NCBI GenBank assembly: GCA_905178155.1
Contig: CAJINV010000010.1
Coordinates: forward strand, 1,571,182 to 1,635,181
Reading direction: 5' to 3'
Source: Amoebophrya sp. A120
Lineage: Eukaryota > Protista > Dinoflagellata
Length of the DNA stretch: 64,000 bases
In this document: piece after piece, positions 521 to 64,000 of the stretch
Layout: every line of letters begins with the position of its first letter
Numbering within the stretch: the first letter of the stretch is position 1
Notes under the pieces: model-generated
The model's database searches: none
The model's input: only the letters and a program-made list of their open reading frames with translations
Told to the model about the DNA's origin: nothing
Translations under genes and position numbers: made by a program

Positions 521-3500
521 ATGTCCCCCCCAGCAGCGCAATCCTGCGCTCCCGCAACCACCACCTGGTGGGATCCGCCCAACTGGAAAACGGACCTGCG
601 ACGCCTGATTCAAAGTTTGGTTAGCGATGGCTGCCTCGAGAACAAGACCGACTCCCCAGCAGCAACTGTATTCGTCGAGTCTACCGTGGTCAATTTCGCA
701 ACGCACTTGACGAACTACTCGTTCGCCAACCGGCTGCAATTTGCGTTCGAATTTTTCGCCGATAAGGAGATCGACCTTCTGGGAACAAACCACACCCAGT
801 TTTCCACCCAATTTCTCTCGCGGCTTTTTTACTGGTGCTTCGAAATGGACGAGGCCGAAAAAATGGCTTTGGCAGATCCAGATGGGAAAAATAACGGAGC
901 AGCTGGAACGCAAAATAAACCCGACGACACGCCACAGCGCCTGCGGGATCAAGATGAAGACTTTGAGATGCTGGATGTGAAAGAGCAGGCGGCCATGGTG
1001 GATGAAGATTTCGAATTGGTAGCGATTTTTATAAAAAGGGTTGGAGACCATGATTACCAGGCTGGTGGTTCATCTAGCACGACCATGCAAGAGACGTCCT
1101 CCGCTCTGCCTGGGGGCCATCATCATCATCAAGAAAAAGAACTCGGCGAACTAAACGGGAGTCGCTTCCACGTGTTTCGTATCGTCATTTTCGTTCTGGC
1201 GAAGCTGGCAAAGACGGGGCCAGCGCCGTTTGCCGCCCTCGCGGTCAAACTCCTAGACGTGTACCTGCAGTCTGCGAGCTCAGACTTCCGGAAGGAATTT
1301 CTGTCGATGATGCTTCCGCTGAGAGCGCTGACAGATGAAAAGCTGGAACAAATCTTCGTAAAAGCGCCCCCAAAACTGCAGCAATTTATCCTCACAACTT
1401 GCCTGAAATTGTGCCGGGAAACGAAGACCGCGGTGACAGGACGAGATCATTCTTGTTCTTCTGGACAAAAGACAACGACGAAAGCTGCAGTACTAGACGA
1501 AAAGTCTTCGAGAAAGAACGCGGAAACAAGAACCAACCGGAGCAGGTTTCTGTACGAATTTATCTACCAAAAGAAGCTGATTTCCGACCCGGTGAAGGAT
1601 GTCTTTCCGCTGTGTTGCGTAGTTCCAGAGGAAAGCGAAACAAAATCGAAACCGGAAATGGAAACACAAATTGCGAAACTAACGCCCTGGCTCGAGCGGT
1701 TCTACCCGTGTTTATTAGTGGAAAGGAAAAACGACTGCGCGTTGGGAGACTCGGCGGGAAACCCCTGGTGGCCGGAGAACTGCAGGCCGAAGAGCTGTCT
1801 GTTACCACATGAAGCTTTTGCTCTCAAGGCGGGGAGCGAACAATTATCGGCGGGTCAGAACTACAAAAACGACGGTGCTGCTGGTGGAACAAATCCACTT
1901 CGTGCAGCATCTTCGGCTTTAGCTGGTCGAAAATCTAAGCAGGAGCTGGCGTCTCTCCCCTCCTGGACGCATTTTGGGGACATTTACTGCTTTTTGTTGG
2001 AAAAGATGTTCGCTTCTTTCGGCCAGGATAAAGTAGCACTCGGTTACTGGTACAAATTTTGGGAACAGCACCTGCTTCCCAACGTTCCGAGAATGCACGG
2101 TTTTGACCGCAAATCGGCGTGGACAGTGCGGATTTACGAATTACTGGTGAAGTACAAACCGATGGTGTTTTCCAAAGCGATTCTGCAAGCCACTAACGCC
2201 GCTGTCAATGCGACGCACTGGGTGCGCCACAGTGCGCAACACGGTTGTCAGGGGTGCCACTGGGCTTGGTTTCTGGTGCCGGTGTTGCCGCAGACGATGG
2301 TATTTTGGAAAAGATCTTTAACGACGTTCCAAATCATTACTTAGCGCATATAGCACATTCTTTTGTTGATGGCGATTCCAGAATGAAAAAATAAATGGCT
2401 CGCGAAAATAGATGCACGCTGTTGAGCCGTACTTCTAGATGTTGCCTCTACAACCTGAGTCGTGCAAGATGAGTCCATGTGCAGTTGCTTGAAAAAAAAT
2501 AGAGTTGCATACATACAGGTCGCCCACTGGATCGGTACCTTGCCGGTGATCGAAAATTCGGTCGTGCCGTTTATGGAAGCGTCAGGTTTGAAATCGACAA
2601 AGTTGAAATAATTTGCCATGCGCAAAATGGATGCCAGTTGGACCCCAGTTTCCAAGTGGCGCATGACAAATTTTGGCTGTGCCTAAATCCAGTTTGTAAT
2701 GCTGTTTAGGTACAAAAGATTGACTCTTACTTCTGCAGCTCGAGCTCTAACCCTAAACAGGCTCACAATCGGCCTCACTTGCCTGCTCTGCAACACACGT
2801 ATTTCGCGCCATGCATTTTATGCATGGCAAATCATTTCAACTTTGTCGATTTCAATCCTGACACTCCCATACCGTTTTTGGAGAACTTCGAAACGATGGG
2901 ACAAGAACGCGCAGAAGCAGGTGGAGGTGACTCAGGCAGCATGATAAAGGAACCCTCCACAGATGATGACGCTGATCTCCCGCCAGACCTGAACCTGGAG
3001 CACTCTCTGCAACTCGCCGAAGTCATCGCGACCCTGTTCAACTACGGGGTGGATTTACGGAAAAACGCATCCAAATCCGGCATCAAAAAGGTGATGGAGT
3101 GTTGCGAGCAAGCGCTCGACAAGATCACAGAAACACTCCGCGAAGGACAAGATGAACAGCAGCAACCTGGTGCTGGCACTGGGTCCTCTAGTTGTAGTAC
3201 CTCCGACCTTCTCGAGGAGCAGTATGGCCGCGTTCTCAAATGTTACATTCTCAACTGTTGCATGATTTGTCATACAAAATTGCCATATGCAACCGCACGA
3301 CCAAGCGGCTCCGCATGAGAAATCTCCGAAGGGCTAAACAGCATGGAAATCTGTGCCAAGCTTGTGATGCTAGAGTTGCAAGGTCCTCCCTTTCACTTTC
3401 GCTTTTCTTGCATCACAAATTCATGTAACGGTTGAGAATGTAACAGTTGGGAACTCCATAAGCAGCTGTGGGCGTTTTTCCTCGCCACTTACAACGCCGA

Positions 3501-6500
3501 CCCCGGGTTCACTATGCAAGAAAAAAATTGTGTAAGTGTAACGTCCCTGTAATGCAGAACATGCAACAGAGTTACATCTGTTATGCCAGAAAGCCACGAG
3601 GCCTCTTTTCATGTGTGTTTTCCCTTGCAAGCAATGCATGACAGGTTTTCTCTGTCACGTAGAGCAAACTTGTGATGCTGTTAGCCAAAGGCAACGAAAG
3701 TTACACTAGCACAATTTGTTTCTTGGATATTCACGCACGGCCCTCTACCCTGCATCGAATACGACTTTGCTGAACTGTTGCGGCGACCTGTGGAGCTCAG
3801 GCAGAGGCGGGGGGGAAGAACTCCGAAGACTTCTGGCGGGAAAGGCAAAGGTGGTAAAAAGAAGGGCAAAGGCAAGAAGCGCGGACGAGGTGGCTCTTCG
3901 CCCCAAACCCGAGGACAACATCTAACCCCAATTATTTCCCGCAACAGCCAAATCTTTTCAAACGTGAAGGACTACATCCACAAGCACAAGTTGAAAATCC
4001 AGGAAATTGCGCAGACAAAGTTCTTACCAAATGCAAAAATGTCTGGGTCTGGAACGAAGGATGCAACTTGTGATGCTGAATTTCGATTCTACAAAAATCT
4101 GTATTGCGTGAACAGCAAAAGAGGTCCAGCTTTTGCCACGGCGAGAGGGCATTTCTCATACGGTATAGGCATCAGGAAGCCCTCACAAAATCTGTGATGC
4201 TAGAGCATGCGTCACAGACTTCAGGAGTCACGCAAAGCGTGCATGACAAACCTTGCATTCTTCCAGACCCAGACACTTTTGCATTTGATAGTTCTACGGG
4301 CTTGAGCAGATTGCACGAAAGCTGGACAAGGAGGAAAACGAATTTTGGCGACAGTTTCTGGTGGAAAAGCGAAAGCAGGCGCAGCAGGAAAACAACAGCT
4401 TGGTTGGGAACTTTGATTCAAAAGTCACGAGAGATCAGCTCCGTCTTTCCTTCCTTTTCCAATACATCCACATGGTGACGAACTTTGACTTCAAAAACAG
4501 CAAATCCGCAAAGAATCCCTACGGCCCGCCGATGCAGCAAAACAGGCCGAAGAAGAGCTATTTCCCGAAAAAATCTTCGAATTTCAAGGAGTTGCAGTTT
4601 TGCTTGGTCAAGAAGTGGGATCAGCTGCGGCACATGTTTATGCTCAAATCCATTTTGCGAATTCGAAAAGCGCTGGCCGTTCCTGGGGATAATGGTATGT
4701 CAGCTGTAGTACCTGGCGAAGATGCGTTACTCCAGCACATCCTCCCGGAGGTTTTACTAGCGGCACTTACGACAACGGCGACTGGTGGATCCAATGCAGC
4801 AACTACCAGCGGCGCTGGCATTCCCGCGAAGGCTGCGACTCTGTCAGAAATTATCGCCCCTGACCAGCAGGCAGAGCTGGTCGAGAAGTTGATTTTCGGG
4901 AAGAACGGCACGACCTCGTTGTTTATCACAGAGCAAGAGAAAGATATTCAGGAGTTGATTTTTGACGCGCGAAGGAAGGCGATCAAAAAAGATTTTCGCA
5001 GTAGCAGCATCTACGCATCGCCAAGCGGAAGTTCCGGCGCCCTTCCCTTCTCCTTCGCGATGTGCTTGGAGTTTTTGAAATTCGATGAGAAAAAAGGAAA
5101 GATGTCGGACAAGATCGTTCTGCCAAGCAACAAATTTGCCGGCATAGCCGATATCCGGAACAAAGTCTACAAAATGCTGGAAAATTACGCAGAGACCGGA
5201 CGGGAAGCGCTGTGTTTGTATCTGGCGAATTTGGTGAAAGCGCAGCTCAAGTGGGAAGTCCTTCACCCGGCGGAAGCGAGGGAACAGCTGGGAGCGATGA
5301 TGATGTTACAGGGAAAAAATATTGAAGATCGCGATACCATTCCGGAATTTTTTCAACCCTTTTTCCAAGACCCGAAACTCCGTCCGATCACCAGGCGAAT
5401 CGCGAAAAACATTTTCCAAACGGGAGGCAACTCGCAGTTTTCGTCCTCTCCCTACGAAGAGCACTTGAACGTGAGGAAACTGGTTTTGGATAGAGAATAC
5501 AGAGACAACAAAGCGAGCAACGCGCTCAGCCTGGACATGTGTTGCAGTCCCCAGAACGACATTTCCTCCGACCACGACACGAATCTCATAGCGTTATTGC
5601 GGGACTTGACGGCGCAAGGGAATCCGAACGATACGTCCTCTGTTTATCGCTTCAAATTCTCCGATATCAAATGTAAAAATGTCTGGGTCTGGAAGAATGC
5701 AACTTGTGATGCTGCATTTGGATTCCAGAAAAATCTGTATTGCATGAGTACCAAAAGGAATGTAATTTTTGCAACGCGGAGAGGGCATTCGTCATGCGGA
5801 ATAGGCATCAAGAAGCTCTCAAAAAATCTGTGATGCTAGGGCATGCATCACAGACGTCAGGGCTCATGCAAAACGTGCATGACAAGTGTCAGAATCTTCC
5901 AGACCCAGACATTTTTACATTTGATATCCGATCCGTCGACCGTCGGGAGCTCTGTCGGTCCCTACAAGACGCCACCCGGGCCGGGTGGGAAGCTGTTGGA
6001 GAGGTTTCTCGACTTTGAGATGGAGATTTTAACAGACCTGGTGGAAATGGCGAAAGCTAGTTTGGAAGTGAGTATGGGAGGCGATATGTTAAAAAAGCCA
6101 CTTAATCCGGTCGAGGAACAAGACGAGACGCGCACTGCCGCTGTGCGACAACGTGCGTGCCTGCCCAGTTCATATTATTTTTGAATCATGGTTGGCGCAG
6201 AGCCCCGCGGGGCTCACGGCCACCGAGACCACCACGCGTTTCTTGTTAGGCAGGAATGAACGCAAGGCCAGCAACCTCGGGCGCGCGGGGACTGCTCGGG
6301 CCAATTTTCATCCTTTTGTTTTTATTTGTTGCTTGGCGTGGGCCTAGCGACTGTGGCCTGACCCAGGCCCTCCTCCCCAAGAATCGACGCGCAGCGTGTG
6401 CTTTGGGCCGGGCCGCCGGAGCTCGGCAGCGGCGCATGGCATGCGCATTGCGCTGCGGAGGGGACCTAGCCCGGTGCAGTGCCGACCGTCTAACCTTGTC

Positions 6501-9500
6501 AGTATAGTCGCATTAGGGAGCCGGGGCCCGACGCGAACCCGGCACCCAGCTGCCCTGTTGTCGCACGCGTTCGGCGAGTCGGTATTGACAAGGCGCCCGG
6601 CCGCGTTACGGAGCGCGGCTGCATGCTCCGTTTGCGTTTGGTATGTGGACATAGATATGTGTGAGCTTGTCTTGCCACCATGTGAATTGCTCTAGTGGCC
6701 GTCGTTTATATGTTCTCTTCCGCCCTCTTTGCCGGGGGCGTAGAGCCTTATTTCCAAATGGGGCGCCACCGTGTATTAAATCCCACCTGGTAACAGCGGT
6801 AGGAAAGTAGTGAGGCCGGGATCGGGCGTGAACCGCGCCTGCGTCTGCACGTGCACAGAGCCCATTTTGCGGCGTTTGAGGTGCCCCGTCGGGCTCTAAG
6901 CGGCACAACCTAAAGCTGCAGCGCACTCGTTTCCGCTGGCTATCGTGAGTATTTCCCGATAGCTATCGTAATGGCGATGGTACCGGAATAAGTGAGTGTG
7001 CGTCCATAGTGAGTATGGGAGCAGGCGATATGTTAAAAAAACCACTTACTCCGGTCGAGGAACAAGACGAGTCTGGTTCTCCTCTAGCGAAACGGATTCG
7101 AATTCGGACCAGCCCGGGGGCAGGGACCACAAATGCTGATGCTGGAACCACTGCGACAATGGAAGACCAGGTGATGGGAGGTGTTGATCCCAGAAGCCCA
7201 GCTTCAGGTGGCTCAGTTCTTGCTTCTTATCCTCTCGACGAAAACACCCCGCTGATCTCAATTTTGCTCGCGTCAGCATCACGATCACCCCCTTCTGGTA
7301 CGAAAACCTCCAACACAGCAGCAGCCTCAACCTCTTCACCAGCATCCTTATTCCAAGTTTCGGAAAGTGCGAAAACCAATTTGAAAGTCGCCGCAAGAAT
7401 GGCGCGCAACGAGAAAAACGCGAAGGAGAATTCGGATGCTGAAGCTGCATCGGGTAACAAAGTAGCGATGTCTGATTTGGAGGAGAAATTGGCAGGTTCA
7501 CTGTTTGTGGAGGTGGACTGCTTTGATGATCTCAGTGGTGGTACAACAGCTGGTGCAGCTGCGGGGGCGGCCACGAGAGTTGTTACATCAAAAAGAAACA
7601 AGAACGTCAAAGCTCCTTCCTCACCAGCTGAGCAGGTGGATGACGAGGACGGGGAATTGCTCTTGCTAAAAGACGCGAAGTGGCGTTTTGCGAAGATCGT
7701 TACGTGCTTGAAACTATCAAATGCAAATATGTCTGGGTCTGGAAGGATGCAACTTGTGATGCTGCATCTGGATTCTACAAAAATCTGTATTGCATAAACA
7801 GCAAAAGAGGTTCAGTTTGTGCCACGGCGAGAGGGCATTTCTCATGCGGTTTAGGTATCAGGAGGCCCTCACAAGAGCTGTGATGCTAGGGCATGCATCA
7901 CAGACGTCAGGAGTCATGCAAAATGTGCATGGCAAACCTTGCATCCTTCCAGACCCAGACATTTTTGCATTTGATAGAAACGGTTAACGGAGGTAGTCGA
8001 CGGACAGAAAAACGGGCTTCTCTTCTTCCATCCGAAGACGACGTGGAAAAGGAGAATCGTTTTCTTGGATGTCGTGAATCCTACAAGTACAACGGCCGAC
8101 GGCACTTCAACATCTAGAAGTACTTCACCCACGAGAACGCCGAACAACCCCATTCAACTCGCGGAATTCCTCACCCAATTGAACGCCTATACCATCGAGA
8201 TGCGGTCTCTTTACACGCAAGCGTTCCCATTTCAACACACGACGAATAAGAAATTCGAGCAGCCGATTCGGCAGCTGGATGAGGTTGAAAACTTGCTGAG
8301 CCAATTACTGACGAAGATGCTGAAGAAGATCCTCGCTATCGCGCCGGGCTTCGGGCAGTTTTGTGCGACTGAGGAGAATTATAACGCGGGCATTTTATTT
8401 CCTGCGACAGAAATGACAGAGCACGAGTATGACGCGCTCAGCTGTTACAATCTCAAACGTTAATACTTTAGAATATGGAAATCTGTGATGCAAGAGTGCA
8501 TGATCTAGCACACTCTCATAGGATTGCGCATGACAAGTTCCGGAGCTCCAAACCCCACTACAATCTGGCGAAATTTGTATTGCAGAAAATGAAACGCTCT
8601 GCGAGTCTGTCATGCTCATCACGCAAGACAAATCTCAGATTCTATTGTAACGCTTGAGATTGTCACGCCTGAGTGGGTTATAACGAGCTGTGTTTGTGGG
8701 AACTATTCATTTTCGTAACGGAGTTGCAGTGGCGGAGATTGGCGGCGTACTGCACGAAAGCTACGTCAGAAGATTTTTCTGCTGCCGGCGCCCGAGGTGG
8801 ACAAGGCTTCGACAGCAGTTATTCACCCGAGCTATTAGAGTTGGTGGCGCAAGCAAGACAAAACAACCAAGAACTTTCAAAAAACGGCTTCCAGCTCAAG
8901 TTCCAGGACGAGTTTCTCTTCGACGATTCTGTGAACAATATTTCCACCAGCAAGACCACGACCCAACTGAAAGCGCTCACCGCCGGAATGGCATCTTGTA
9001 TCCACTTGCTCCACAGCATTGTGGATGGGACTTCCTGTAGAAACGAAACTCTGAAAAGAAAATCGGAGGCGAGCAGAAGCTACAACCCAATTTGGAACGT
9101 TTCTTTAAGCTCAACCACGGAGAGCAAGCAGATCCAGACCAACCTCCAGACCTTCTTCACCCGCATGCTGACAAACCTTGGCACGCAAGAACCGATGCTG
9201 GGACCGCACGCGAGCCACGAAGTGGCAGCTATGGGTAGTAGTAGCACCGACCGAAATTTGAAGCCGTTTCCGATCGCGGGAGCGTTTGTAAATGTGTTGC
9301 TACGCTTCGCGGAGATACTTGCTACAACGCCATCACCAGGCACGAACTCCTCTAGTGTAGTTTCTGCGACACGACCAGCAGCAGGAAAGAAAGAGAAAGT
9401 AGATTCGTCTTCTGCCTCCACCGGAACTGTTCTGATTCAAATCGCGACACAGTTTCTTTTCAAAATGTTCACCCTCACCATCCCCCCCGCCGGGCCGAAT

Positions 9501-12500
9501 ACGGCGACTCTCTGGCCGGATGAAAAAGAGGAGCTGAAGGAAGCGAGCAGCGGAAGCAGGAAGATGAACCTGGGATCAGGTAATTCTCAGCCGGATGAGT
9601 ACGCGAAGAATTATTGGCGGAGCGTCCGAAGCAATTGCTGGGCCTGCAGGATGTCGACGTTTGCGGTTTTGCACGCGAGTTTGCGGGACATGGGGCTTGT
9701 TCTAGGTGGAACTATAGAGGATAACTCGGGTACTACTGGCGGGCGCACGACCACAACGGCTGGAACTGCAAACGACGTCGCACAAGAACTGCCGCTATTT
9801 AACGAGCGGTATTTCCTCGCAATGCTTGAATCCGCGGAAACCGAGCAGATCGAATTAATCCGGCAACTGCAAGATCTCCAGCCTGTGGACGTGAAAGATC
9901 CGGAATCGAGGATCGAACGGGTGGTAAAAACGCTGGAAGACGGCTTCTACAGAATGTTGACATCATATCCTATGTAAAAACGTCCCCACCCCATAGTCAA
10001 GATGGGGGATTGGCTAGACAAATCCACAAGTTTTGGCTGTCTTGCATGACAGATTTGGACTCATAGCGTAGTGCTGTTTGAGCTAGCTCAGCAGCATCAC
10101 AGACCTAGCATATCATGCTGATTGGAGCATGACAAATTGCAAAACACGACTGGAAAATGCTTCTCATGGGGCTCCGCATGAGAAACAATTTCAGCAGGCA
10201 GATTTGCAATACAACTATGGTGTGGGGACGTTTTTACATAGGATACATCAACACCCTTCCTGCTCCAGTATCTCCCGAAGCCACAGTTGCTGCTACCACT
10301 GTGCTACCAAACCTGGTTTGCGCAAGTTGTGAAAGTTTTGAAGATATCAAATGTAAAAATGTCTGGGTCTGGAAGAGTCATGCTGTTTCTGCATAACACA
10401 GAAGGTCTGGCATGGAAGCTCTAGCATGGAAGCTCTAGCATCACAGGTTTCGAGAAGCTTCCGCAATGCCGAACCCGCGTGACAAATCCCCCACTTTGGT
10501 GGCAGAAAGTGAGCAGCTTTTGCTGCCTATGCATCAGAGATTTTTGTGTGCTCTGAAATGCGCATGACAAGTTGCTTTGTTCCATACCCAGACATTTTTG
10601 CATTTGGTAGAAGACCTACGCAGCGCGGAAAATCCAAAATGAGCCCGGCCCGGTATCAAAATGAAAAAAGCTCCCACCCCATATCAATGGGAAATCTGTG
10701 ATGCAGGATTTGTGTACACAAATGCGCGCTGTCTTGCAATACGGCATCGCAGCCAGATCCGCAGCCTACGGAGGGACGTTTGGGTCTAGGTGCTTAGCAT
10801 TACAAACGGCTGTGCTCCAGGCCCAACAGCATGCCAAATCGCTTCCATAATGGCGCGGAAGCCTCTGTGTTTGTCTTCTTGCAAGACACGCGCGATCTGT
10901 GGTCTCAAATCAGCAATACAAATTTCGGAAGCATCCTTTTTGATATGGGGAGCGGGGACTTTTCCTCTCAATACCCGGACAGAATTCGCTTCTACGATTG
11001 GCTTTGGAACGAAACAGAGAAACTGCTGAAGATTGGGTTTCAGGCCCATTTGATGAGCTTTAGCGGGTATTGCAGGAGTAGAAACGTTCTGGTGCTGCAG
11101 GATGAACATCAAAGTCAGAGCCAGCAAGGACAACGAACAACTACCGAAAAAGGACAAAACGCGCAGTACTTTTCCCTGACGGAGGTAGAGGCATATGCAA
11201 AACAGCTAGCCGAACCGCTGACGGAGTTACTCCAGCTGCATTTGAAACTTTTCCGAGAAGATATCGCGAAACGGGATTCCGTTGCGAAGCACCATTTCAT
11301 GGAAATTGCAAAGAAATGGCTGCGGCTCGCGAGCGACTGGGAAGAGGGAATTCTGCTGTCCTCCGAAGGGACTGCGCGGAGTTGCCTGCATGCGCTTGCG
11401 GTTTTGAACTCTACTACTTGCAGGGGAAATACTGCGCAGGAGGACCAGCACCAGCAAGCTTCGCCGCTGAAACAGTTCTACGATAAGGAGCTTTACAACC
11501 TGCGCAGACTCGTGATCAAAACTGCGATGGAAATCCAGCTCCCCGTGATACAGCACCAGGACGGTCTTGCGGCGACGAAGAAGTACGTTTGGCTGGTTGA
11601 CTCCACTTTGTACAAGCCCGCGGGCAATCTTATCGTCGATGTGGACTCCTTCGAAAAGCCAAGGGGGATTGAGTCGTTAAACCTGTTGCCCGGGGATGAA
11701 AAAGAGTTCGAAAGACTGCGGAAGCTGTACGTGGAGAGACTTATGGAGTGTATAGAAGAGGACGAGAAGATAATGAAAACGGGACAGCCTACTTCCAACG
11801 GCGGAGGCTTTGTCGGTCGTTCTGACGATGAAAGCGGAAAAATGCACCTCTCCGAGGACTCCAATGGACCTGCATCCTTATCCCCGATCGACGACAACAT
11901 GGGTGTGATTGGTACAACTTCTGCCAACGATAAAGCTGCTGGAGAAAAACCTTCTTCCTTCCTGCGAGATCTCCTGTCCGCGGCCCACCGGAAGAGATTC
12001 GCGGACCGGAGCGAGTATTTGAAAAACTTTTTAGACAAGTTAACGCGGCAACTGCAGGTGTTCCAAAAACCGGACAAGACAACCCCGCTTCTCCCTCTCG
12101 CCGAACAGGCGCGGCTATCTGCGAAACAGCGGACCGAACTGTTTTTGCAGGTTTTCATGGAGCGGAGCGGGTCCCAAGACTCGGAGGAGTTTAAGAAGCA
12201 GGTCTTTGACGCAGGAATTGCGCGGGACAATTCTTCCTCGTTCAGCACCACTACCGGCGGGGCGGCTGGAGTGAAGATGAAACTGCTGCCACTGCCTGAA
12301 GACACAACGATGAAGACTTGGAAAATACATGCCTCCATGTTTTTCAAACGATTCATGTTTTTGATCCGCAGCTCCGTAGGCGAAGGAAGACTGCAGCTGT
12401 TCCATGTATATTTAGACCACTTACTTATTTTCTTCAGGTGCTGGAGTTTCACTTTCAAATACATTTTTGTGGTGAAGATGCTCTCGCTCCAATTTATTTT

Positions 12501-39350: not shown

Positions 39351-39384
39351 GCGTTTTCGCATTGGGTGAGCTTGGCGAAGGTGA

Positions 39385-51900: not shown

Positions 51901-54900
51901 ACTTCATCCTCCGGATCCTCTGCTCCAGCTTCCAAAGCGGCGAAAATTCGCCGCCAGTCGCCCCCACCTGGAGGTGGAAACGTCGGGTTTATTTCAACCG
52001 TGCAACCAAGGACACTGAACTTATCCGGACAACAGGTTGGGGGCTTCACTGCCGCGACGACCTCTCTGTCGTCTGCAAAACAATCCGCTGCCGTAACGGT
52101 CGCGAGTTCTCCGAACTACATGATGCTACACCAAGGTGGTGGAGCAGGGGGTCCTGGTCCTCTTGTTCCTGCCACGACGATGCACCACCATCTTCAGACA
52201 AGCGCTGGAGGAGGTCTTCCTGGTCCAGGTCCTCAAACTGCGACCACAAGAACCCCCGCTGGGCCGAGGGTTTTGTCTGTGAATCCACCGCTTGCGCGAA
52301 GTCGGGGCGGTGGCGGTGTGGAGCTGAAACATGAAACTCACTTTCAAGCGACCATACTAGCACCTGATCGTGGTCGCGGTTCTTCCACTGGACGACCACA
52401 AGCTGTATCCTCGATCCCTCCATCCGGTACGGCGACCTCCAAGGACGTCGGAAGTGGAGGGGTACTGACTGGCTTGTCCAACCGCCTGTCACCCCTAGCC
52501 AGTGGAGGTTCTGCAATGGGTGGTCGTGGTGCGGCCGTTGTTACATCTACCACTGCAAACGTCATCGACGTCGCATGTGACGAAGTTGTGGAAGTACAGG
52601 CGCAAGCTGAAGGGGAAGATCATGATTGCGACTGCAGTAGTGGAAAACAATCTGAGAATCTTCATCCGACTCCGGAAATAGTGGCTGCACAACAAAATGC
52701 TGACCATGAAGGAAGCAATGAAGCCCAGGGAGCGGCTATTGAGCAGCGCGTCAATGATCCATCTGCCAATAGCACAACTCGGAATGATCGACGCAGAAGA
52801 ACTTCCAGCTCCTACCAGAGCGAGAATAGTGGTGCAACTGGAAGCGAAGATGTGCATCATGCTGCTGAAACCCACCTTTTGACAGAAAAGCTGCAGCCAC
52901 TGGTAAATTTTCTGCACGCGAACCCGAATTCCTTCACTCTGACCTCCCTCGACTCCGGCACCCTCGTCGAGATCAATGAGCAAGTCTATGAAGTCGGCGA
53001 GCTGCTGGGCCAGGGAGCGTACGGGGCGGTGTTTGCAGCTGCATCGTCGTGCTCTAAGACGACGAAGAATTCCGCATCTTCTGCTGCTTCCACATCATCT
53101 CCTTCTCCCGAATTACGGAGGTTGCAACAGCAAACCCACTCGCAGCTATTTCCGTATGCGGTCAAAGAGATTAAGGCGGGAAACGGTCTGGGGCTACCGG
53201 ACATGACAGTGAAAAAGTTGTTTTATGAACTCCACTGTCTAGCGTCCGTTCCAAAGCACTTAGCGGGAAAGTCGGCGCCGGGGCTGGTCGGGGCAACATG
53301 TTGGCGATTGAGTACTACTTATATATTACGAACAACTTTGTTTCATCATCTAATTGTTGCACTAGGGTGATTTTTCTTTCTCAAGAAGAAGTGCTATCCA
53401 TGCATGCGCGGTTCAAAGTTCTCCACGCTAGCGCTAATATAATCATACTCAACCCTTCATTGCGACTTCTATCTTGATATCACAAAAATCTCAGCTCCGG
53501 ACTCCGCTATCATTCGTTTCGTGATGACCCGCGTAAATGGCCAGCCCCTGGTGGAATTTTTGCAAGAGGACAAATGTGCTGCCCGTGATTCGTCCGCTGT
53601 CTCGGCTTGTTCCACAGCATCTCCTGCCCCAAGGCCGAGCAGCAACAGGAACAAAGAGTCGAATTCGAATAGAATGCCCGACGTGTCTTCTGCAGTCTTT
53701 TTCGTAGCGACGCTTTTATACCAAATCGCAGAGGTACAGGAGATTCTGGGCGAAGAGTGTATCCACCGCGATGTGAATACAAGGAACATTTTGGTGTCTG
53801 GTGTAGCAGGTTCTTGTGCAGGTAGTGGAACAGCAGCGTTAACACTGTCAAATTTGTCTTGCGGCCCTGGGTTGATGAAGAATCTTGAAGCTGCGCAAAA
53901 ATCCCCGCTATCTTCTTGTTCGAACACTGCATTCTCATCTTCGTCTCACACAACACGACGGAATAGCCCGGAGCTCCTGCTGCAAATGAGCGGCGCTCCT
54001 AGTCGTCGTGCAGGGGCTTTTCCCGCTGCTTCAGAAATTGATCTGACCAATCTACCAGACGCTGACGTTGACCCTAGCTACACCAGCAGTCCAGACGGGT
54101 TGTTTTCCGAGGCAAGCCAGTTGTACCAAACCCCACAGTTGCGGTCGGATCAGGATGAAAAAGAGGAGAGCAACCTTACCCCAACCTCCGCTGTAGCTGC
54201 AACGCGGAGGAGGAGACGCAACTCAGGCTACGCTTCTTGTTCTAGCGCGAAAACGAGAACGAGTCGAGAAGAGCCCGGGAGTTCAGTGAGGACCGTCAAG
54301 CAGCCCCGAAGTTCGAGGAAACTCGGTGGGTATACCCACGACGAGGAGCTAGATCCAACGGACACGGCAGATCAACTACATGCTCGTGAGGACCAGCAAC
54401 GAGTAGAGGAAGACAAATTATTGCAACAAAACTACCTCCAATTTTCCATTGTAGACTATGGGTCCGCGACCAGTGCCAGAAAATTCGCTGCAGACAGCGG
54501 CTGGGCGAAGTTACCCCCAACGGGGGAAGCGAAGCAATGGTGCCCTTTTGCCTGGAAATTGTTGTACGAATGGAACGATTTGCAGAAGAAGGGAGTGGAG
54601 AGTTGGCTGCGACAGAACATCAACAACGTCATGGCTGCCCATCACGCACCTGCAAGCCACGGCAGGGTAGGAACGGTGCCACGAACTAGCATGGTAAACG
54701 ATTTCTCGTCAGCTGCGGGGGGCTGCGGCAAACCCAATGATCTGGAAAGTAGCCGGCGTGGTTTGAACATTTACAGGAAGCAGCTGGATATCTACGCCTA
54801 TGGCGTTCTCAAATGTTACATCCTCAACTGTTACATGATTTGCCATGCAAAACCACAATCAGAATCGATGCGATCAAGCTGCTTAGCATGACAAATTTGC

Positions 54901-57900
54901 AAAGCGCTAAACAGCACCGAAATCTGTGCGGAATTTGTAATGCTAGAGGCGCAACCTTCCCCCTTTGACTTTTGCTATTCTTGCATTGCAAATTCGTGTA
55001 ACAGTTGAGAATGTAACAGTTGAGAATCCCATAACGCCCTCGCAGTGGTTGCAATGGAGGTATTTGATCGGATTGTGCCAGTCCGAGTGCTTTCGGACGA
55101 AGTGGCCGCGCCTTTATCAAATGTAAAAATGTCTGGGTCTGAAATATTGCGAGATTTGTCATGCTTGTCTGGCATGACAAAAAAGTTTGTGATGCGTGTC
55201 CAAGAAGAGACCCTTTTTCCTGTCATGCAAAAACGCAGTTTCTCATGCGAAAAACGCAACACAAAGAAGCGCAGATATTTCTCATGCTTGGCTGTGCATT
55301 ACAGAGCATTCACCATTCCCAACACAGCATTACAAGTTTCCAGACCCAGACATTTTTACATTTGATAGCCTTCTTCGCAGTACAACTACCCAAAAGTAGC
55401 TGCTGCACACAGTGGGACGAGGACCACGAAGGGCGGATCTACGAATATTGGCCCTTCACCACAGCTGACTACTAGCACCAGCAAGTCAAGTTTTTTTCCA
55501 AGCGGAGCAGGAAAGGGGAAGGCAAGAACTGCTGGAGGTGGAGGAAACCGCAATGCTAATGCTTACTCGTGCGCCAGTCCGTTGAATCCGTATCCGGGGT
55601 CGTTGCTGCAAGGGGGTACTACCGCGTTTCATCAGGGAAGAAATGCCACAACTCACGCGCCACCACCGTCGACAAACATGATTTCTGCGTCTACTGCGAA
55701 TGCTGGTCATTTACTCCAACAACTCCAGAGGACCAATAGTCTCAACACGACACAAGCTACGACGACTGCCTCCAATAATCGTGGGAAAGAACAAAGAACT
55801 GGTCCCCTGGTCTGGGACCTGCAACTCACGACCGACCATCTTCATCAGAACTCGACGATTGTACCCGATAGTGATGCTCCTGGTTTAGAGGTGGCCGCCG
55901 GTGAAGCTGCTGCGCCAGAAGATCAACGCTCTATGAAGATCTTCCCTGACGACCACAAATACAAGAACGCTTTATCATCGAACAACCGCCTCTCCACCAG
56001 CTCCTGCGCGACCCAGAACACGGTATCAACCTCGGTTCCCAGCAGCAGCAAAAACCGCAGGGCCAGCACCTCCACCGCGGCGACGGCCTCGAATGTCTCG
56101 CTACTTTCCGGGCTTACCGCCCCAACTGCTGCTGAGTCCTCGCATTCATCGTTTGCTGCATCGGCCTCAAAAAATCAATACGGAAATCGACGTTCCGGCG
56201 AATTTGTTGTAGAGCCACATGCTGACAAGAATTATCAGCAGCAAAAAGCCTTCCACAATCTGCAAAAGTCCTGGTCCACTTACGAGCAAATCGCGAAGCA
56301 GGGCACGGACAAGCTTTTCGCGTATTCCAAAGCCTGCGTCGAAGAGCCCGGGAAGGTGTCTATGCATTGCAAAAGTATCGTGTTAGTAGTAAAGTAATAG
56401 TAATTGCATTACAAATTAGCTCAGCATGACAAACGGAACTTGTCATGCGGCTTTAGCTTGAAAAAGAAATTTGTCTTGCATGGCTGCGATTAGTACGAGC
56501 GCACTGCTTTTGCACAGGATAGTGCTTCGGCAGTCGCAACTTTGGCAGGAGTTGATGCAATTTCGGATGCCGGAGAGATTGGAAAAGGGGTTGCATGCAT
56601 TGGAAAGAGATTTGGGGGGAGTGATTGCGGTGTTTAAGAAGGAAACCAGCAGGCTGGAAAGTAGTGCAAGTTGTTCGTCTTCATCTTCCTCTTCCGCCAA
56701 GGGTTCCTCCTCTTCTCACGCTCGCCAAACGCAAGAAATAAGAACTGGCAACAACAAGCCCAACGCAGTAGTTCCGGGGCAACGGCAACCTGCTTTGTAC
56801 CAGAAAACTAACGTCGTGCAGCCGCTCGGACAGTTTTTGCAGCAGAACCGAGTCGGTACAACTGCTGGTTGTGGACCTTCACCTTCTTCGTTGCTGTTTC
56901 AGCAAAACTCTGCTTCGCACTCTACTGCTGGTGAACAACAAGAGGGTGATCGCCAGCAAGCTGGAACTGACCCTAACGAAACGGAAAGCTCGAGCCGAGA
57001 ACAGATAGTACCGGGCGGCGCTAGTGTTAGTGCTAGAATCACAGAGGAGCTACAGAACATCGCCGATTTTTTCGCCTTGATTCGCTCCATGATGGTCTCC
57101 GCAAACACGACCTGGAGTGACGTGAAGGTAAAGGCTGCTGAAATCATTCTTTTGGTTGAACAATGTGAAGCACAAGAAACAACAAGTATCTTCGCAGCTG
57201 CGGGTGAAGATGAGGAACAGGAGCAGGAGTCGCAGTCAATAAAAAACAGCGGCGACGAGGGCGTGGATTTTGTCGAAGGTGAAGCGAGAGAGTATGATTG
57301 CAAAGCACAATCACACCCACCTTCGGCTTCAGCCAGTCGAGATCAGGGAAACCAAACTCCAACACGAACACCTTCATCGGCTGCAAATGAAGCTGTCCTC
57401 GCTTCCGCAGCTACAGCTCCGCAGGAGGGCACGACCTGCGTTTTTGCAGCGAAGAAGGAACTTCACTTCACACCCGATACTACGATCCAAGAACCGCAAA
57501 AACAGAACTTGCAAGTAGAAATACTTGATCCGACAGCACTCCAAGAAGGAAGCACCACGGCGAACGAGGAGAGCGACGCTGGCAATGCAACTACGATTCC
57601 AACCCGCCTTCCTGCGGTAATGAAGCAGGTCGTCGGAGAGGCGCGTGGCTCAACAACTTCCACCCCACCATCAACAGCCGTCTGCTACACCCTTGACGAG
57701 ATGGCTGCAGCTGCACGAGGGAAAACGCCAGCAGATGGTGCATCTGGAATTCTCACTGCGGAAGTACATGAGCAGCGCCAGCACTCCTCCTCCCAGCAGT
57801 CCTCACACGAGCCGCATCAAGCAGTGGAAAGAAGTTTTAGTGGCAGCTCCAGTGCTCACGACCAAATACTGAACACTTCCCACGGGTCGTCGCTGAGTTC

Positions 57901-58507
57901 TAGTTTATCCCTGTCGGCATCCTCCAATCCTGCACGACGTGCGGTAACTAGACAGAAAGACGAAACCGAATACGAAGAGCTTGAACGGCTGCGGCGGAAT
58001 GCGAGGAGGAGGACGAATTTAACGGTGGAGAAAGGAGTCGGACAGGTGTCGGTTGAAGGAGATGGGGCTACGCCGTCAGCAACAGGAATGGCAGACGCTG
58101 GACGACAAGTTGTGGAAAGACAACCGACACCGAAGCTCCTGTCCGGCGTCACTGACGAAAGTGCTGTCGGCAGGAAAGCAACGGGAGGAGGCGCAAATTG
58201 TAGTTCTACCGGAACAGCAGGCGTTGCTGGAGCCGGGAGCAAACATGTGCGTGTAAACAAAACGGCTGAAGCGGGTTGTACCAGTTCAGGAGCATCGGTC
58301 GTGGTTCAGCGGCAGTCCGGGATCGCGGCGGGAGATGGTACAACTCGCGGTGGGGGTGCAGCCGCAGCTACGGTTCGTTCCAATAACAGCAAAACGCGCG
58401 GAGAGCAGCTGCACGGGGTAGTTGGAGGGAATAAGACTACCGGGTCTGTTGTGGCCAAACCGAGAGAGGTGGCCACCAATCCGGGAAAGGTTTGGAGGAT
58501 GAAGTGA
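48948..58507 (+). CDS. Very large divergent eukaryotic protein kinase (~2,850 aa)
   Basis: Exons 48948-51545, 51703-53290, 53465-54798, 55039-55114, 55373-56360, 56527-58507 in frame. Subdomains YEVGELLGQGAYGAVF (I), YAVKEI (II), LFYELHCL (III), IHRDVNTRNILV (VIb), IVDYGSA (VII), and DIYALAVVAME (IX, formed only after introner removal). Confidence 0.85.
51546..51697. mobile_element. TIR introner, family B
   Basis: tatgaattgcaaaagtatcgtactcgta...tacgagtacgatacttttgcacaggata; DR tgctg. Confidence 0.94.
53291..53464 (+). other. Probable degenerate non-canonical intron (ends approximate)
   Basis: AT-rich segment with in-frame stop inside the kinase domain; weak IR gcaa...ttgagta / tactcaa...ttgc; removal gives APGLV-DFYLDITK. 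Confidence 0.55.
54799..55033. mobile_element. TIR introner, family D
   Basis: tatggcgttctcaaatgttacatcctcaactgttac...gtaacagttgagaatgtaacagttgagaatcccata; DR acgcc. Confidence 0.93.
55115..55367. mobile_element. TIR introner, family A ends with a different interior
   Basis: tatcaaatgtaaaaatgtctgggtctg...cagacccagacatttttacatttgata; DR gcctt. Confidence 0.93.
56361..56521. mobile_element. TIR introner, family B
   Basis: tatgcattgcaaaagtatcg...ctgcttttgcacaggata; DR gtgtc/gtgct. Confidence 0.86.
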
Positions 58508-58589
58508 GGCAATGCGCTTATGCGACAGTAGATGAAAAGATACAACGCATGCGCATCATTGAACAAAAGCGCAAGCTTTTGACTTCTGC

Positions 58590-58697
58590 GCGATGGACGG
58601 CATGTACATGATAGTAAAACAATGTGCAAAATAAACGACGAAACTCGCGATGGACGACATGAGAGTAAAACCATGTGCAAAAAAAACGACGAAGCTC
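58590..58697 (+). repeat. Two-copy ~55-bp tandem duplication
   Basis: gcgatggacg...catga.agtaaaac.atgtgcaaaa.aaacgacgaa.ctc occurs twice. Confidence 0.8.
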
Positions 58698-58889
58698 AAT
58701 CAGAAAACAAACTAAGCACGAATGCGTGGCCATGGAATGCCGCCCCGACCACGGCGCATCAAAGCCGCTGATAATCTTGACACAGCTCGCTGTTCGTTAG
58801 TTGTTATGCGACACGGCCGAGGCATTATTTTACGCTTTGCCTTTGCGGATGCGCAGTCAAGCTTCCAGGCATGTTATCGATCGTTAGGC

Positions 58890-60530
58890 GGGCGCGTGTC
58901 GTGCGCAAACTGAGCGCGGCGCCGCGCGCGTAAAAAGAAGCCCCGAGACATGGAGGGCCCTCGTGACGGTCCCCCTGTGGGTTTGGGGCTTCCAGAATAG
59001 GGGGGCGCGCGGGCCCTTGTGTTGTCCGAGTGCAGTGTCGCGGCAGTGAAATCCACCCCAGAAGGATTGGCACGCCATAAATCCAGCCGCGGCGCGATTC
59101 GCCCACCCCCCAGCCCGCGCATTGTCCAGAGATGTGGGATCTCGATGGCGAAGAAAGGACGGCGCCCGACTCTAGCGAGTTTCTCGACGTCAGGCACCCC
59201 GGGCCTGCTGCTAGGGTGCTTGCGTTCTAAGCTTGCAGGACCAGGCGCCACGGTGGAGCAGGGGCGGGGGGCCGGGCGCCGCGGCAATCAAGTCGGCGCC
59301 CGCATCCGGGCGCACGAGCTCCCCGGTGGCCGTCTCTGCTGATGCAAGCAAGGGGGGCCGAGCGAAGCGCCGGCGCGCGTTCGCCGCAAGGCCTTTGCCG
59401 GCGCCTTTGTTTGCCAAGACATGGATGAGCGAGGCTGCAAGGGCCTGGCGCCAAACAAAGAGCGCCGCGCCTTCCTACGCTCTGCGTCTGTGGAAACCGT
59501 GGAACCGAGAGCGCGCCGCCCCTCCCCGTCGTAGTTCCGCCCTGCCTGCCCTGCTCCTCGGGAGCATGGCCGCGCCCGGGCCCCTTCCTTCGTTCCTTCG
59601 GCATCGCCTGCCCTCGCAAGTGGCGCGAGCCCTGGCGCGCCCACCGCGCCTACCAGCCGGGGGGCCTACCTTGCCGGGGCGGGGAGGCCCATTGGCGCTA
59701 TTGCCGCGCGCTGGCCGGGTCGTGATTGCTTGGCCGCGGCGCAGAAATGGCAAAGGAGAAGCCTTGGCAGACAGTGTGGCCGGGCGACTATATCTGGCTG
59801 GGACCGAGTAAGGGCCCCCCGTCGGGTGGCTTGCTAGCCGATCAGGACCCGCAGGGAGAGGCCGGCCGGCCCAGGTGACAAAGGTGGACTCTTCGCGGCC
59901 AACTATGACGCCAAGGGAAAAGGTGGACTCCCGGCGAACCACGGCGGTGACAAGGGTAAGGGCGGCTACCCGGTGAACTACGGCGGAAACAACTTCGCCG
60001 GGTATGGTGGTTACACCTCCGGGCAGGGAGGCCTCCCGGGAAGCTCGACTTCGTACGGTCCGGGTGGCGGAGGAGGACTCCTGGGAAACGTCGGCCCGAA
60101 CACCGGTCCGAACACCGGTCCGAACACCGGGCACGACAACGGGCACAAGTACCGCGGACAGGGTGGCAGCCAGCGACCGCGACTTTTGCGATTTCATGGA
60201 CGAGGAAAATGACAGCGAGCTGGGGAAGTGGTTGAACAAGGAAAAGAGTGACGACTTGGCGAAGACGTCGACCAAGAAGCCCCGTGCCCACAATTTCAGC
60301 GGCTCCCTCCAGGGCGAAGACGGACGGTGGCCAGCGGGGGCGGCAACGATGCGAGGGCCCGTCTTGGGCGCGCGCTCCCATCTTCGGCTCGCCGCGCATT
60401 GATTGACCCTTCTTGCGCCTCGGCATGCGATGGGCGAGCGTCTGTCTACCGAGGTCGCTGCGCCCACGGCTCCGTCCCATCGCCGGAAGAAGTAGAATCT
60501 TAATCATTGTGGACGCCGCGCTTCGCCTTC
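58890..60530. other. Very GC-rich island, possibly a decayed retroelement or foreign coding fragment
   Basis: Abrupt GC rise; broken + strand frame encoding Gly-rich ...DKGGL...AKGKGGL...DKGKGGYPVNYGG...(GPNT)x3; no RT, integrase or recombinase motif seen. Confidence 0.35.
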
Positions 60531-60847: not shown

Positions 60848-62435
60848 ATGGCAACAAACTGGTCCCAGAAACAGCAAGGTCGACCACCGCAGGTTGATTG
60901 CCTGTTGCAGTGCTTGCTTTTAAGAACACATGACGGGAGCGGGTCCACAAAGGATGCAACTAAAGTTGCGGGCTGCAACAAAAGCACCACAGAGGCAGAG
61001 CATGCACACAACGCAACAAGCCACAACCCGCTCGGAGGTGCCCGCCGTGTCGGGGAGAGGCCCACTACCCCTCCGTCATCAACCATTCATCCTCCCGCCC
61101 AGCAACCGCTGACAAAAAGATTTCTACCGCCACTTGTTTTCGAAGCCTTATTCGACACACCCCCAACTGGCGCTTTTACGGCCGGGCAGGATTATCTTGC
61201 CACAAGAACAAATCAACACACTCCGCTGTCGCGGCTAAAGCGGGCCTATATCACCGAAGTCGCGGGCCCCGCAGGTGCGGGAAAGTCCCAGCTTTTGATG
61301 CAGTTGGCGGTGGAGCACTGTAAAAGCCAATTTTCACGGCTTGAGCCGCAAGAACGTGGCCACGACGACGACCCCAGTTGTGCACAACTACAAAAAACTG
61401 CAGTGTCTTGTGTCCTGGTTCTGTCCACGAACCGTGCCGCGTGGGTGGCATATGCAATGTAAATTTCCCGTACATGTACAAAATGCATGACAAATTTCGC
61501 TAACTTGCAGCGTCCAAGCAACTTGTCATGCTAGACTAGGATTGAAGGCAAGTTTTGTCATGCAGAGACTGCATTTGTACGTGTACGGGAAATTTCCTGT
61601 GGATATGGCAAGATTGCGCAGCATAGTCGGCAGAGAAAGCGACCACCTTCTCCAGCACATCCGGGTCCAGCAGGTGAATTCTTTGGAGGATGTCCTCGGA
61701 GTGCTGGCGAAGCTTGTGGAGCTTCAAGATGTTGGTGAAGATGAAATACAACAGAGCGCTGAGAATAGTACAGGAAGCCATGAAATAATACCTGCTGGAA
61801 ACCACATTCCAACCACGACATCAGGCACTGCCGTCGCGTCATCAACCGTGGTAGACGAAACCACAGGAAGCGTGAATCAGTTCCCGTCATCAAAGTCAAG
61901 CGCTACGCGGCTCTCTACCGAGCAAGAAGAAGCAACTTCAAATCTGAAGAAGCCAGAGGAGAAGCAAGCCAGCGTCGAAACAAGTAAGCCGACCCGTCAA
62001 CCGCGAAATTCTCGGCTGCAGAACAGAACGCAGATTCATCTTCATCTCGGTCTCTTCCTTCTCGACGGTCTGACTATGCTGATCAGCGGTGCGGACTTCG
62101 CGAATTTCAAGCACCGGGAAAGATCCTTACAGCGCCTAATCCGCAACCTCCGGTGCATCAAGTGCCCGGTGTTCTACACGGCGCATTTAGCGCAGGATTG
62201 GAAGCAGAACTGTTTGAAGTTATCTTTGGGGAGAACCTGGACCGAGCAAGCGTGCCACCAAAGGGTTTTCCTGCAAAGGTTACACAACGTAGACATGGCA
62301 GGACGACAAGAGAATGCAGGTGAATTGGAACCAGACGCGAGTGTAGTGCTCGCCACGCTGAGCGAGGAGCAGGGGGAAGGCGTGTTGTTGGGAATTGGAA
62401 AACGCGGTGTGAAGTTGTTAAATTCGCTGACGTGA
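60848..62435 (+). CDS. RAD51/RecA-family recombinase paralog (RAD51D/XRCC3-like), ~475 aa
   Basis: Exons 60848-61450 + 61611-62435. ITEVAGPAGAGKSQLLMQLA (Walker A in RAD51-family context), LFLLDGL (Walker B), LSLGRTW...RVFL (paralog C-terminal motif). Confidence 0.85.
61451..61605. mobile_element. TIR introner, family F (inverted relative to 27889)
   Basis: tatgcaatgtaaatttcccgtaca...tgtacgggaaatttcctgtggata; DR tggca. Confidence 0.94.
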
Positions 62436-63357: not shown

Positions 63358-64000
63358 ATGCACGGCTTCGATTCGCTTGTCGGCGGGGGGATTCTCCTCC
63401 TCTTGCTCGAGCTGTTGATGATCGCGGTCGTATCAAATGCAAATATGTATGGGTCTGGGAGGATGCAACTTGTCATGCTAAATCTGAATCATGTAAAAAT
63501 TGCGCTGCATGATTTTGATTGCCCAAAGCAAAATAAGCTGTCCACTTTTGACCTAGTCGAGAGGCAGTTTCTTATGCAGAATAAGCATGATAGAATTAGA
63601 ACTCTCACAGAATCTGTTATGCTATGTCCTGCATACCAGACCTCATGGATCATAGAAAACCTGCATGACAAACCTAGCACTCTTCCAGACCCAGACATAT
63701 ATGCATTTGATAGGTCGTCGCCTACAACAACGAGCTACGCACTGCAAATATGTCTGCGCCTGAAGCGGTCTGTTGTAGTAAACATGCAAAGGCACCACAT
63801 GATAAAACGCACGCGCTCTGTTTGCTAGGTGCAAGCGAACGTTCTGATGCGTGAGCATAGGCATAGCATAGGCTTCCTTGCAAAAGAAGAAGAAACTTGC
63901 AAAAGCCTTTGCGTGCATGCGAGAAGGCCTTCTGATGCGTGGTCGAAAAGATGCATCACAAACAAGGACAAAATTTCAGGACCAGACATGAAATTTTCAG
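63358..64000 (+). CDS. 5' end of a probable secreted/membrane protein (runs off the window)
   Basis: MHGFDSLVGGGILLLLLELLMIAV (signal-peptide-like), then introner, 18-nt exon 63718-63735 (VAYNNE), then a second introner. Confidence 0.6.
63431..63712. mobile_element. TIR introner, family A
   Basis: tatcaaatgcaaatatgtatgggtctgg...ccagacccagacatatatgcatttgata; DR ggtcg. Confidence 0.93.
63736..64000. mobile_element. A-related introner truncated by the window end
   Basis: tacgcactgcaaatatgtctgcgcctgaa ... ttcaggaccagacatg near the window end. Confidence 0.6.

Follow-up and report, generated by a model that had tools for sequence, protein, structure and literature searches.

The question raised by a 64,000-nucleotide stretch of the Amoebophrya sp. 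A120 genome (contig CAJINV010000010.1 of assembly GCA_905178155.1, positions 1,571,182 to 1,635,181; the whole stretch is referred to as the window) is why short repeats that interrupt its + strand open reading frames (ORFs), and whose families differ in sequence, carry one and the same internal word, YTGTSATGC, and what reads it. The families, at least 11 in the window, have only three features in common: TAT[C/G]...ATA termini, a 5-bp target-site duplication (TSD), and the word itself, AAAYYTGTSATGC(W) in its extended form. In our reading, held at a probability of about one half, the copies of the motif are putative binding sites on double-stranded DNA for a mobilisation machinery shared by all these TAT-ended families of introners (intron-forming elements) resembling miniature inverted-repeat transposable elements (MITEs). 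The original prediction had proposed a shared protein-binding code that marks the elements for removal; its better half, a retained word resembling a binding site and comparable to the subterminal repeats of DNA transposons, is supported, while the removal mark is not.

The strict form of the motif, YTGTSATGC (as distinct from a broad, looser definition used alongside it), occurs 93 times on the two strands of the window, against 3.52 ± 1.63 expected and a maximum of 7 in 100 dinucleotide-preserving shuffles, an enrichment stronger than had been predicted. With the second copy of a segmental duplication dropped, in which 5 matches are counted twice, 88 matches remain, 47 on the + and 41 on the - strand. 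They stand in 55 different flank contexts, and the enrichment is therefore not one repeat counted repeatedly. The commonest 9-mer of the window is GCATGACAA/TTGTCATGC with 43 occurrences, followed by poly-T with 25 and words from the terminal inverted repeat (TIR) of family A with at most 19. The variants listed earlier are borne out, with C (43), G (16), or A (13) and almost never T (1) as the fifth base and G (43) or C (10) as the third. A weighted logo extends the motif to A-A-A-Y-YTGTSATGC-W; the word AAAYYTGTSATGC comprises 9-13 bases.

The motif belongs to the elements. A curated set of 41 elements and introns, compiled from self-BLAST, TIR detection, and RNA joints and comprising 9,500 bp, contains 81 of the 88 strict matches (8.5 per kb), and only 7 are found in the other 51,832 bp (0.135 per kb), in agreement with the earlier description of the motif as sporadic outside elements. 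Even of these 7, those at 31937, 32627, 33022, and 33363 belong to the decayed TAT...ATA elements of the cluster at 31903-33425 (one in each of the four, with 18-23 of 30 TIR positions still matching), that at 31776 lies in a stretch repeated in related metagenome contigs, and that at 63953 in a partial element at the window end, while the match at 28822 lies in no element. Thus at most 2-3 of the 7 are truly outside elements, compared with about 2.8 expected by chance in ca. 52 kb; since the outside matches are mostly in decayed or partial elements, exons are at about chance level. The four decayed copies retain 1-2 motifs each, as had been claimed for copies with eroded ends.

The word is the only thing that the interiors share. 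A BLAST comparison of 12 representatives between families returned matches of 13-30 nt only, all at motif sites, the one exception being A/A2, which have their TIRs in common. All 11 family representatives contain GCATGACA, and 10 of the 11 contain GCATGACAA, while in 200 shuffles of the representatives no 8-mer was common to more than four and no 9-mer to more than three. The elements contain 2-8 copies of the motif in either orientation, and some family I copies are without it. The examples given earlier hold: two copies (14550 and 14582) in the 119-bp element starting at 14515, three (27931, 27963, and 27997) in that starting at 27889, three strict ones in 9966-10245, four strict (eight broad) in 55115-55367, and three in 61451-61605. 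The description of the families as otherwise dissimilar is borne out by the short matches confined to the motif and needs correction with regard to the common termini and duplication.

These termini define the elements well. TAT[C/G] at the start and ATA at the end are found in all families, and a perfect 5-bp TSD in 21 of the 26 elements with well-defined ends (28 elements are listed, two of them with imprecise ends). The TIRs, 26-62 nt in length, show 72-97% complementarity in 25 listed pairs, and 25 TAT...ATA pairs have at least 19 matching positions out of 24. The inverted repeat typical of A120, i.e., TAT, about seven variable bases, and at least three A, is represented by TATCAAATGTAAAAA, TATCCTATGTAAAAA, TATGAATTGCAAAAG, and TATGCAAGAAAAG, while families B, C, and E start with TATGG and lack the early A-run. 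Element lengths range from 119 to 339 bp, without coding capacity. The terminus and the 5-bp duplication being common to all families, a single insertion chemistry is indicated.

Transcript-like sequences show how the elements behave in genes. The contigs of runs X3, X5, and X6, called RNA-like here (the RNA label is a guess; strand and library type are not on record), skip 17 intervals and in addition 61446-61605, and the ends of the skipped intervals, as listed, are mostly not GT..AG. The unit absent is always the element with exactly one copy of the TSD (e.g., 10340-10609, 15372-15687, and 61446-61605), so that the transcript has the sequence from before the insertion; the joints include 10339>10610, 15371>15688, 14513>14638, and 61445>61606, with a boundary ambiguity of 3-6 nt. 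The RNA-like contigs also pass over two ordinary GT..AG introns. None of these joints is seen in the DNA-like run X1, which spans the non-repeat introns and in which the repeats exceed unique sequence in summed depth by factors of up to thousands. Raw RNA-seq runs with the same species label, X9-X11, gave 3, 2, and 396 partly fitting reads on 19.9 kb. The 396 reads of X11 fall inside family D elements (3518-3542 and 13070-13119), the genes being barely covered; the 3542/13119 joint is on opposite strands and the loose ends are unlike the window, which suggests an abundant transcript with a D-like element in another strain or sample.

The TIRs, the 5-bp TSDs, and the skipping in the RNA-like contigs together lead to the assignment of the elements as MITE-like introners, whose features fit the published description of those of Amoebophrya sp. 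A120. In the available text of that work the introners of strains A25 and A120 are repeated non-canonical introns that end in inverted repeats of 8-20 nt and have direct repeats of 3-5 nt at the boundaries with the exons, the A120-type repeat consisting of TAT, about seven variable bases, and an A-run, and the mean introner length being ca. 240 nt (Farhat et al. 2021, PMC7789003). The window elements resemble them in the terminal inverted repeats, the boundary direct repeats, the A120-type repeat, a size of about 240 nt, and the non-canonical ends, and the window resembles the regions described there in that its genes are co-oriented and most of their proteins have no domain match. They differ in the internal motif: the text of the paper and its supplement describe terminal inverted and direct repeats only, and the supplement text contains none of the motif strings.

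The arrangement of the motif copies is regular. Adjacent copies were measured in 13 representatives, families A and I being represented twice (additionally by A2 and I2). Of the 34 spacings, 26 belong to the classes of 15-18, 31-35, or 45-50 bp, which form a 16/32/48-bp lattice, against a permutation mean of 7.8 and with none of 5000 permutations reaching 26; spacings of 31-35 bp account for 10 of the 34 (2.5 expected, P=0.0002). Direct pairs are typically 31-33 bp apart, and inverted pairs 15-17 or 45-49 bp. We interpret a distance of ca. 32 bp, close to three helical turns, as one that would place direct repeats on one face of the DNA. Seen from the element ends, the nearest motif is just behind the TIR: its distance from the terminus is 31-52 bp at 19 of 26 ends and below 31 bp at none. 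The copies point inward in families A, B, C, D, and G, outward in I and J, and in one direction in H and F.

The motif columns are also conserved. In eight family alignments of copies not chosen by the search pattern, identity to the family consensus is 0.919 at motif columns and 0.850 at other interior columns, the motif columns being better conserved in 7 of 8 families and with permutation P<0.02 in 5 of 8. The permutation P values are <0.0005 for families A (14 copies), I (12 copies), and D (3 copies), 0.0035 for C (3 copies), 0.016 for E (2 copies), 0.17 for J (3 copies), 0.21 for G (2 copies), and 0.57 for B (3 copies). Counted over all copies, 44 of the 69 individual sites in family A are intact, and 25 of the 46 in family I. 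In the element lineages, selection on the motif is clear.

At which stage this selection acts was approached by separating variants found in several of the sampled copies (shared) from those found in a single one (private), with families J (14 copies) and B (8 copies) considered at non-selected sites only. The odds ratio of variants at motif columns is 0.22 for shared and 0.58 for private ones (p=0.027) in family A, 0.29 and 0.83 (not significant) in I, 0.42 and 0.17 (p=0.052) in J, and 0.72 and 0.18 (p=0.004) in B; in this sample of about 14 copies, families A and I, in which the depletion of shared variants is strong, disagree with B and J. The depletion of private variants in B and J, together with the orientation independence and the regular spacing of the motif, would suit a host-level DNA signal, e.g., a transcription-factor, chromatin, or replication-related site, unrelated to transposition or splicing. 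A CATGCA core of the motif, found in about half of the copies (TGCATGACA in 22 of 43), may resemble words bound by alveolate AP2-type factors. For a signal of this kind some sites outside elements would be expected, yet the motif is there at about chance level, and the co-occurrence with TAT termini and 5-bp TSDs and the start just behind the TIR would be left unexplained; we consider a host signal improbable.

The reading we prefer is that of a cis-element acting at the DNA level, with sites for a mobilisation machinery. The proposed binder, a putative transposase or accessory DNA-binding protein, would mobilise all these introner families: one protein or a related set would recognise both the termini, where it would cleave, and the internal arrays, which would promote cooperative binding to the ends or synapsis. 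Lineages would continue spreading only while keeping their arrays, and the same word would therefore persist in families otherwise diverged beyond recognition. Splicing would depend on the TIR hairpin and the TSD rather than on the motif.

Such an arrangement is familiar from DNA transposons. The window elements have the features of MITEs with subterminal repeats, namely TIRs, a fixed 5-bp TSD, and a motif behind the TIRs in both orientations. In Ac/Ds (AAACGG), En/Spm (12-bp TnpA sites), and Hermes, short repeats in both orientations lie within 100-250 bp of the ends, where the transposase or an accessory protein binds them, and transposition depends on them in cis; we know of no strict 16/32/48-bp lattice in any of them. 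Membership in two of these groups was considered and rejected: hAT elements have an 8-bp TSD, and CACTA elements a 3-bp TSD and CACTA termini, so by these criteria the 5-bp TSD and the TAT[C/G] termini exclude both hAT and CACTA (En/Spm). Of the Transib criteria (a 5-bp TSD and CACWATG-like termini), the first fits and the second does not. Integrase-type enzymes typically make 4-6 bp duplications, into which the 5-bp TSD would fit, and pogo/Tc1 elements make TA duplications, unlike the window elements with their 5 bp. Likewise among the closest analogues is the Arabidopsis MITE Emigrant, whose TIRs are bound by proteins of the pogo-like element Lemi1, which also bind its subterminal repeated motifs cooperatively, according to the available part of that report (PMC1636448). 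Common to both is a short non-autonomous element with TIRs and subterminal repeats, which in Emigrant are bound by the transposase of a related autonomous element. The window motif differs in being known from sequence alone and in that one word spans many sequence-unrelated families acting as introns.

As to the enzyme, the available text of a recent survey classes the A120 introners as 'TIR DNA, Unknown' and describes a family 38 with an integrase-like ORF between TIRs, the ORFs of TIR-flanked elements resembling Copia/Gypsy integrase (Gozashti et al. 2025, PMC12130899). Organism and element type are the same as in the window; family 38 is set beside the window families by its description only. 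A 5-bp TSD with TAT termini would be compatible with an integrase-like enzyme of the kind hinted at there for other A120 introners.

Several points weigh against a common mobilisation machinery. Motif orientation is not uniform between element ends and families, H and F being asymmetric, while classical transposase sites are usually symmetric at both ends. Some family I copies have no motif at all, and in family B the unbiased alignment, of three copies, gives no higher conservation of the motif. Private variants are depleted at motif columns as well, which could mean a constraint acting after insertion and thus a role at the host level; the label 'private' is unreliable, however, because only about 14 copies were sampled out of the thousands suggested by the depth, and a private variant need not postdate the insertion. 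A Pfam search of 79 window ORFs (14 + 65) found no transposase, integrase, or DNA-binding domain, with sub-threshold chance matches only. Finally, no transposase was found in the matching strain, and transposase-mediated mobilisation in A120 was argued against, in the part of the paper of Farhat et al. available (PMC7789003). Contrary to that position, the shared 5-bp TSD, the termini, and the internal arrays argue for one common machinery acting on DNA.

The removal mark of the original prediction is one alternative. Some factor would read the motif, either in the pre-mRNA or as the DNA template is being transcribed, and would direct the precise non-canonical excision of the element with one TSD copy. 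The absence of the elements from the RNA-like contigs at non-GT/AG ends, with a 3-6 nt ambiguity, would suit it, as would the motifs retained in decayed elements and the somewhat lower frequency of private variants at motif columns (odds ratios 0.17-0.83). U1 small nuclear RNA (snRNA) is missing and an unusual splicing mechanism has been proposed in the available text of the A120 study (PMC7789003). The motif strand has no bias relative to the transcribed strand (47 + versus 41 -), however, and the elements skipped by the RNA-like contigs include sense-only (14515-14633 and 47663-47880), antisense-only (10345-10609), and motif-less ones (47923-48077), alongside motif-less non-repeat introns. 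The motif is thus not required for removal in any one strand sense, which argues against a signal read in RNA, since an RNA-binding protein would not treat a word and its complement alike. A mark read on the DNA would evade the strand argument, but not the motif-less cases. A mark for splicing is therefore less likely than binding sites for transposition, and we regard it as unlikely. Its most elaborate form, in which the AAAYYTGTSATGC lattice, on the template DNA or in folded RNA, would be recognised by a factor dedicated to it that brings about a U1-independent, hairpin-guided excision of the element with exactly one TSD, and in which thousands of introns would owe to one cis-code both their spread and their removal without harm, is more doubtful still. 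As for the motif as a branch point or a stretch complementary to an snRNA, we know of no convincing match.

Folding raises the question whether the motif is a structural by-product, its inverted copies and CATG core merely building hairpins that join the intron ends, or the word being the slowest-decaying remnant of a common ancestor. The elements form long hairpins, in which motif bases are paired with a mean probability of 0.77 compared with 0.67 for other bases (minimum-free-energy folds, 12 representatives pooled), and inverted pairs 15-17 bp apart form 9-bp stems, e.g., 5828/5845 and 56424/56440. Motif pairing is no higher than that of the rest in families B, C, D, F, and G, though, and H and F carry one orientation only. 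Any complementary sequence builds a stem, so a common word in unrelated families would be left unexplained, and neutral common descent cannot yield a variant deficit at motif columns. We hold this to be very unlikely, the least probable of the alternatives.

Beyond the window, a scan of metagenomes for two copies of TTGTCATGC 31-33 bp apart returned at least 125 loci, at least 47 of which, among the matches listed, belong to one assembly (contig names beginning JACKZZ01). Its loci comprise the families of the window at 72-94% identity and further short introns with the 32-bp motif pair; BLAST to the window elements was positive for 41 of the 125 loci among the matches listed. Bystander elements of JACKZZ01, not selected by the pattern, carry the broad motif in 10 of 10 cases and the strict one in 9 of 10, with 20 strict matches in 1,977 bp. 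The motif-rich loci inspected outside JACKZZ01 were discarded, being simple tandem arrays (11-, 16-, or 31-33-bp units) with the expected chance matches and unrelated to the window; L087, L034, L019, L050, and L098, for instance, are arrays with periods of 16, 32, or 33 bp that contain the 9-mer by chance and are unlike the window. A scan of viral contigs gave 11 matches, all attributable to chance and none similar to the window. Intron-like stretches of ca. 100-120 nt with a motif pair 32 bp apart are seen in three JACKZZ01 loci (L017, 380-500; L016, 380-500; and L107, 280-400). At least one of them, that in L017, looks like an ordinary GT...AG intron without an obvious TAT TIR, and the motif may accordingly extend, to judge from this locus, beyond the TAT-ended families.

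Subterminal repeats in MITEs are already known; the apparent novelty is that every family of a non-canonical introner system has them, and that they are set on a lattice. In the main text of Gozashti et al. (PMC12130899) 'subterminal', 'binding motif', and 'internal motif' have 0 occurrences each, and the papers searched on introners and on the motif strings gave no report of an internal motif, although a logo in figures or in Roy et al. 2023 (Current Biology, on dinoflagellate introners) could have escaped. The motif bears on two questions about these introners, that of their movement and that of their splicing. A 13-nt word in all families, a fixed lattice, common termini, and a 5-bp TSD point to a single trans-acting factor, and the motif can be used as bait: as a probe for pull-down or DNA affinity purification sequencing (DAP-seq), as a search pattern for the autonomous element, and as a covariate of intron retention. 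If the factor is a transposase, it would explain the joint invasion of thousands of genes by unrelated MITE families; if it is a splicing or marking factor, it would represent a new way of defining introns.

The individual elements are given below by family, without strand. Family A is the most numerous, with members at 4025-4290 (TSD gttct/gttct, three motifs), 5665-5926 (a perfect 30-nt TIR, TSD tccga, and motifs 5704+, 5828+, 5845-, and 5877-), 7715-7976 (TSD gaaac, 3 strict and 4 broad motifs), 10345-10609 (3 broad motifs, antisense only; skipped with one TSD copy in X3, 10339>10610), 15902-16165 (TSD agcag, X3 skip 15895>16165), 16232-16489 (right end imprecise, X3 joint 16225>16496), 20342-20611 (4 strict and 5 broad motifs, X3 skip 20338>20614), 35432-35691 (2 strict and 3 broad), and 63431-63712 (TSD ggtcg, two motifs). 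An A-like element lies at 45844-46088 (3 strict and 4 broad), and A2, which has the family A TIR with a different interior, at 55115-55367 (253 bp, TSD gcctt, 4 strict and 8 broad motifs).

Family B comprises a 300-bp introner at 2572-2871 (TSD ccgtt/ccgtt, 1 strict and 2 broad motifs), the element at 15377-15687 (TSD cgtca, 3 strict and 4 broad; X3 skip 15371>15688), and a partial copy at 44517-44689 with motifs 44549+, 44604-, 44637+, and 44669+. To family C belong 3225-3461 (2 strict and 3 broad motifs), 30808-31043 (3 strict and 4 broad, spaced by 48, 49, and 46 bp), and 54799-55033 (TSD acgcc), and to family D 3513-3729 (TSD ttcac/ttcac, 2 strict and 3 broad) and 12969-13186 (TSD ccctt, 4 strict and 5 broad; X3 skip 12963>13187). 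The two family E elements, 8428-8682 (TSD acgag) and 14004-14260 (TSD caaag, X3 skip 13997>14260), have three motifs each. Family F is represented by 9966-10245 (TSD catca), with 3 strict and 4 broad motifs, all on the - strand and thus antisense to the + gene, and family G by 10654-10973 (TSD cccgg, X3 skip 10648>10974) and 13331-13669 (X3 skip 13329>13674), each with 1 strict and 2 broad motifs. The 119-bp family H element, 14515-14633, has the sense motifs 14550+ and 14582+, 32 bp apart, and is skipped in X3 (14513>14638).

Family I includes 26490-26636 (0 strict and 3 broad motifs, mostly the TTGTAATGC variant), 27152-27304 (TSD tcata, duplicate at 36267-36419), 47923-48077 (no motif even by the broad definition; skipped in X3, X5, and X6, 47922>48078), 51546-51697 (TSD tgctg, motifs 51613+ and 51644+, 31 bp apart), and 56361-56524 (inverted motif pair 56424- and 56440+); a further copy, 32261-32416, lies within the cluster of decayed TAT...ATA elements at 31903-33425 (31903-32063, 32462-32735, 32885-33099, and 33165-33425). 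Family J consists of 27889-28042 (TSD ggaac, motifs 27931-, 27963-, and 27997+, duplicate at 37004-37157) and 61451-61605 (TSD tggca, three motifs), across which X3 and X5 contigs join 61445 to 61606. The intron or element K, 47663-47880, has two motifs, sense only, and is skipped in X3, X5, and X6 (47662>47881). A partial element at 63730-64000 contains motif 63953-, and motif-less non-repeat introns skipped by the RNA-like contigs are located at 44886-45198, 45231-45406, and 12406-12625.

The G+C content of the window is ca. 50%, and all 11 ORFs of at least 400 amino acids are on the + strand and rich in low-complexity sequence; tRNA and Rfam scans gave no match. A segmental duplication of 2.67 kb (26700-29366 = 35815-38482, 99.8% identity) comprises two introner elements with their flanking exons, and pieces similar to it are also seen at 29349-30061 and 39884-40236. 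A tandem repeat of ca. 53-bp units, the copies being 85-90% identical, occupies 39384-39572 in a G+C-rich stretch with ORFs on both strands. A local G+C peak of 0.62 at 58001-60000 coincides with long overlapping ORFs on both strands, for which the Pfam search gave no match. One X3 contig skips 60 bp at 18233-18294, with two other letters in between and the ends CC..CC, which may be a short intron, an indel polymorphism, or an allele; the flanks of this skip (18133-18233) also match 35364-35425 and 35692-35736.

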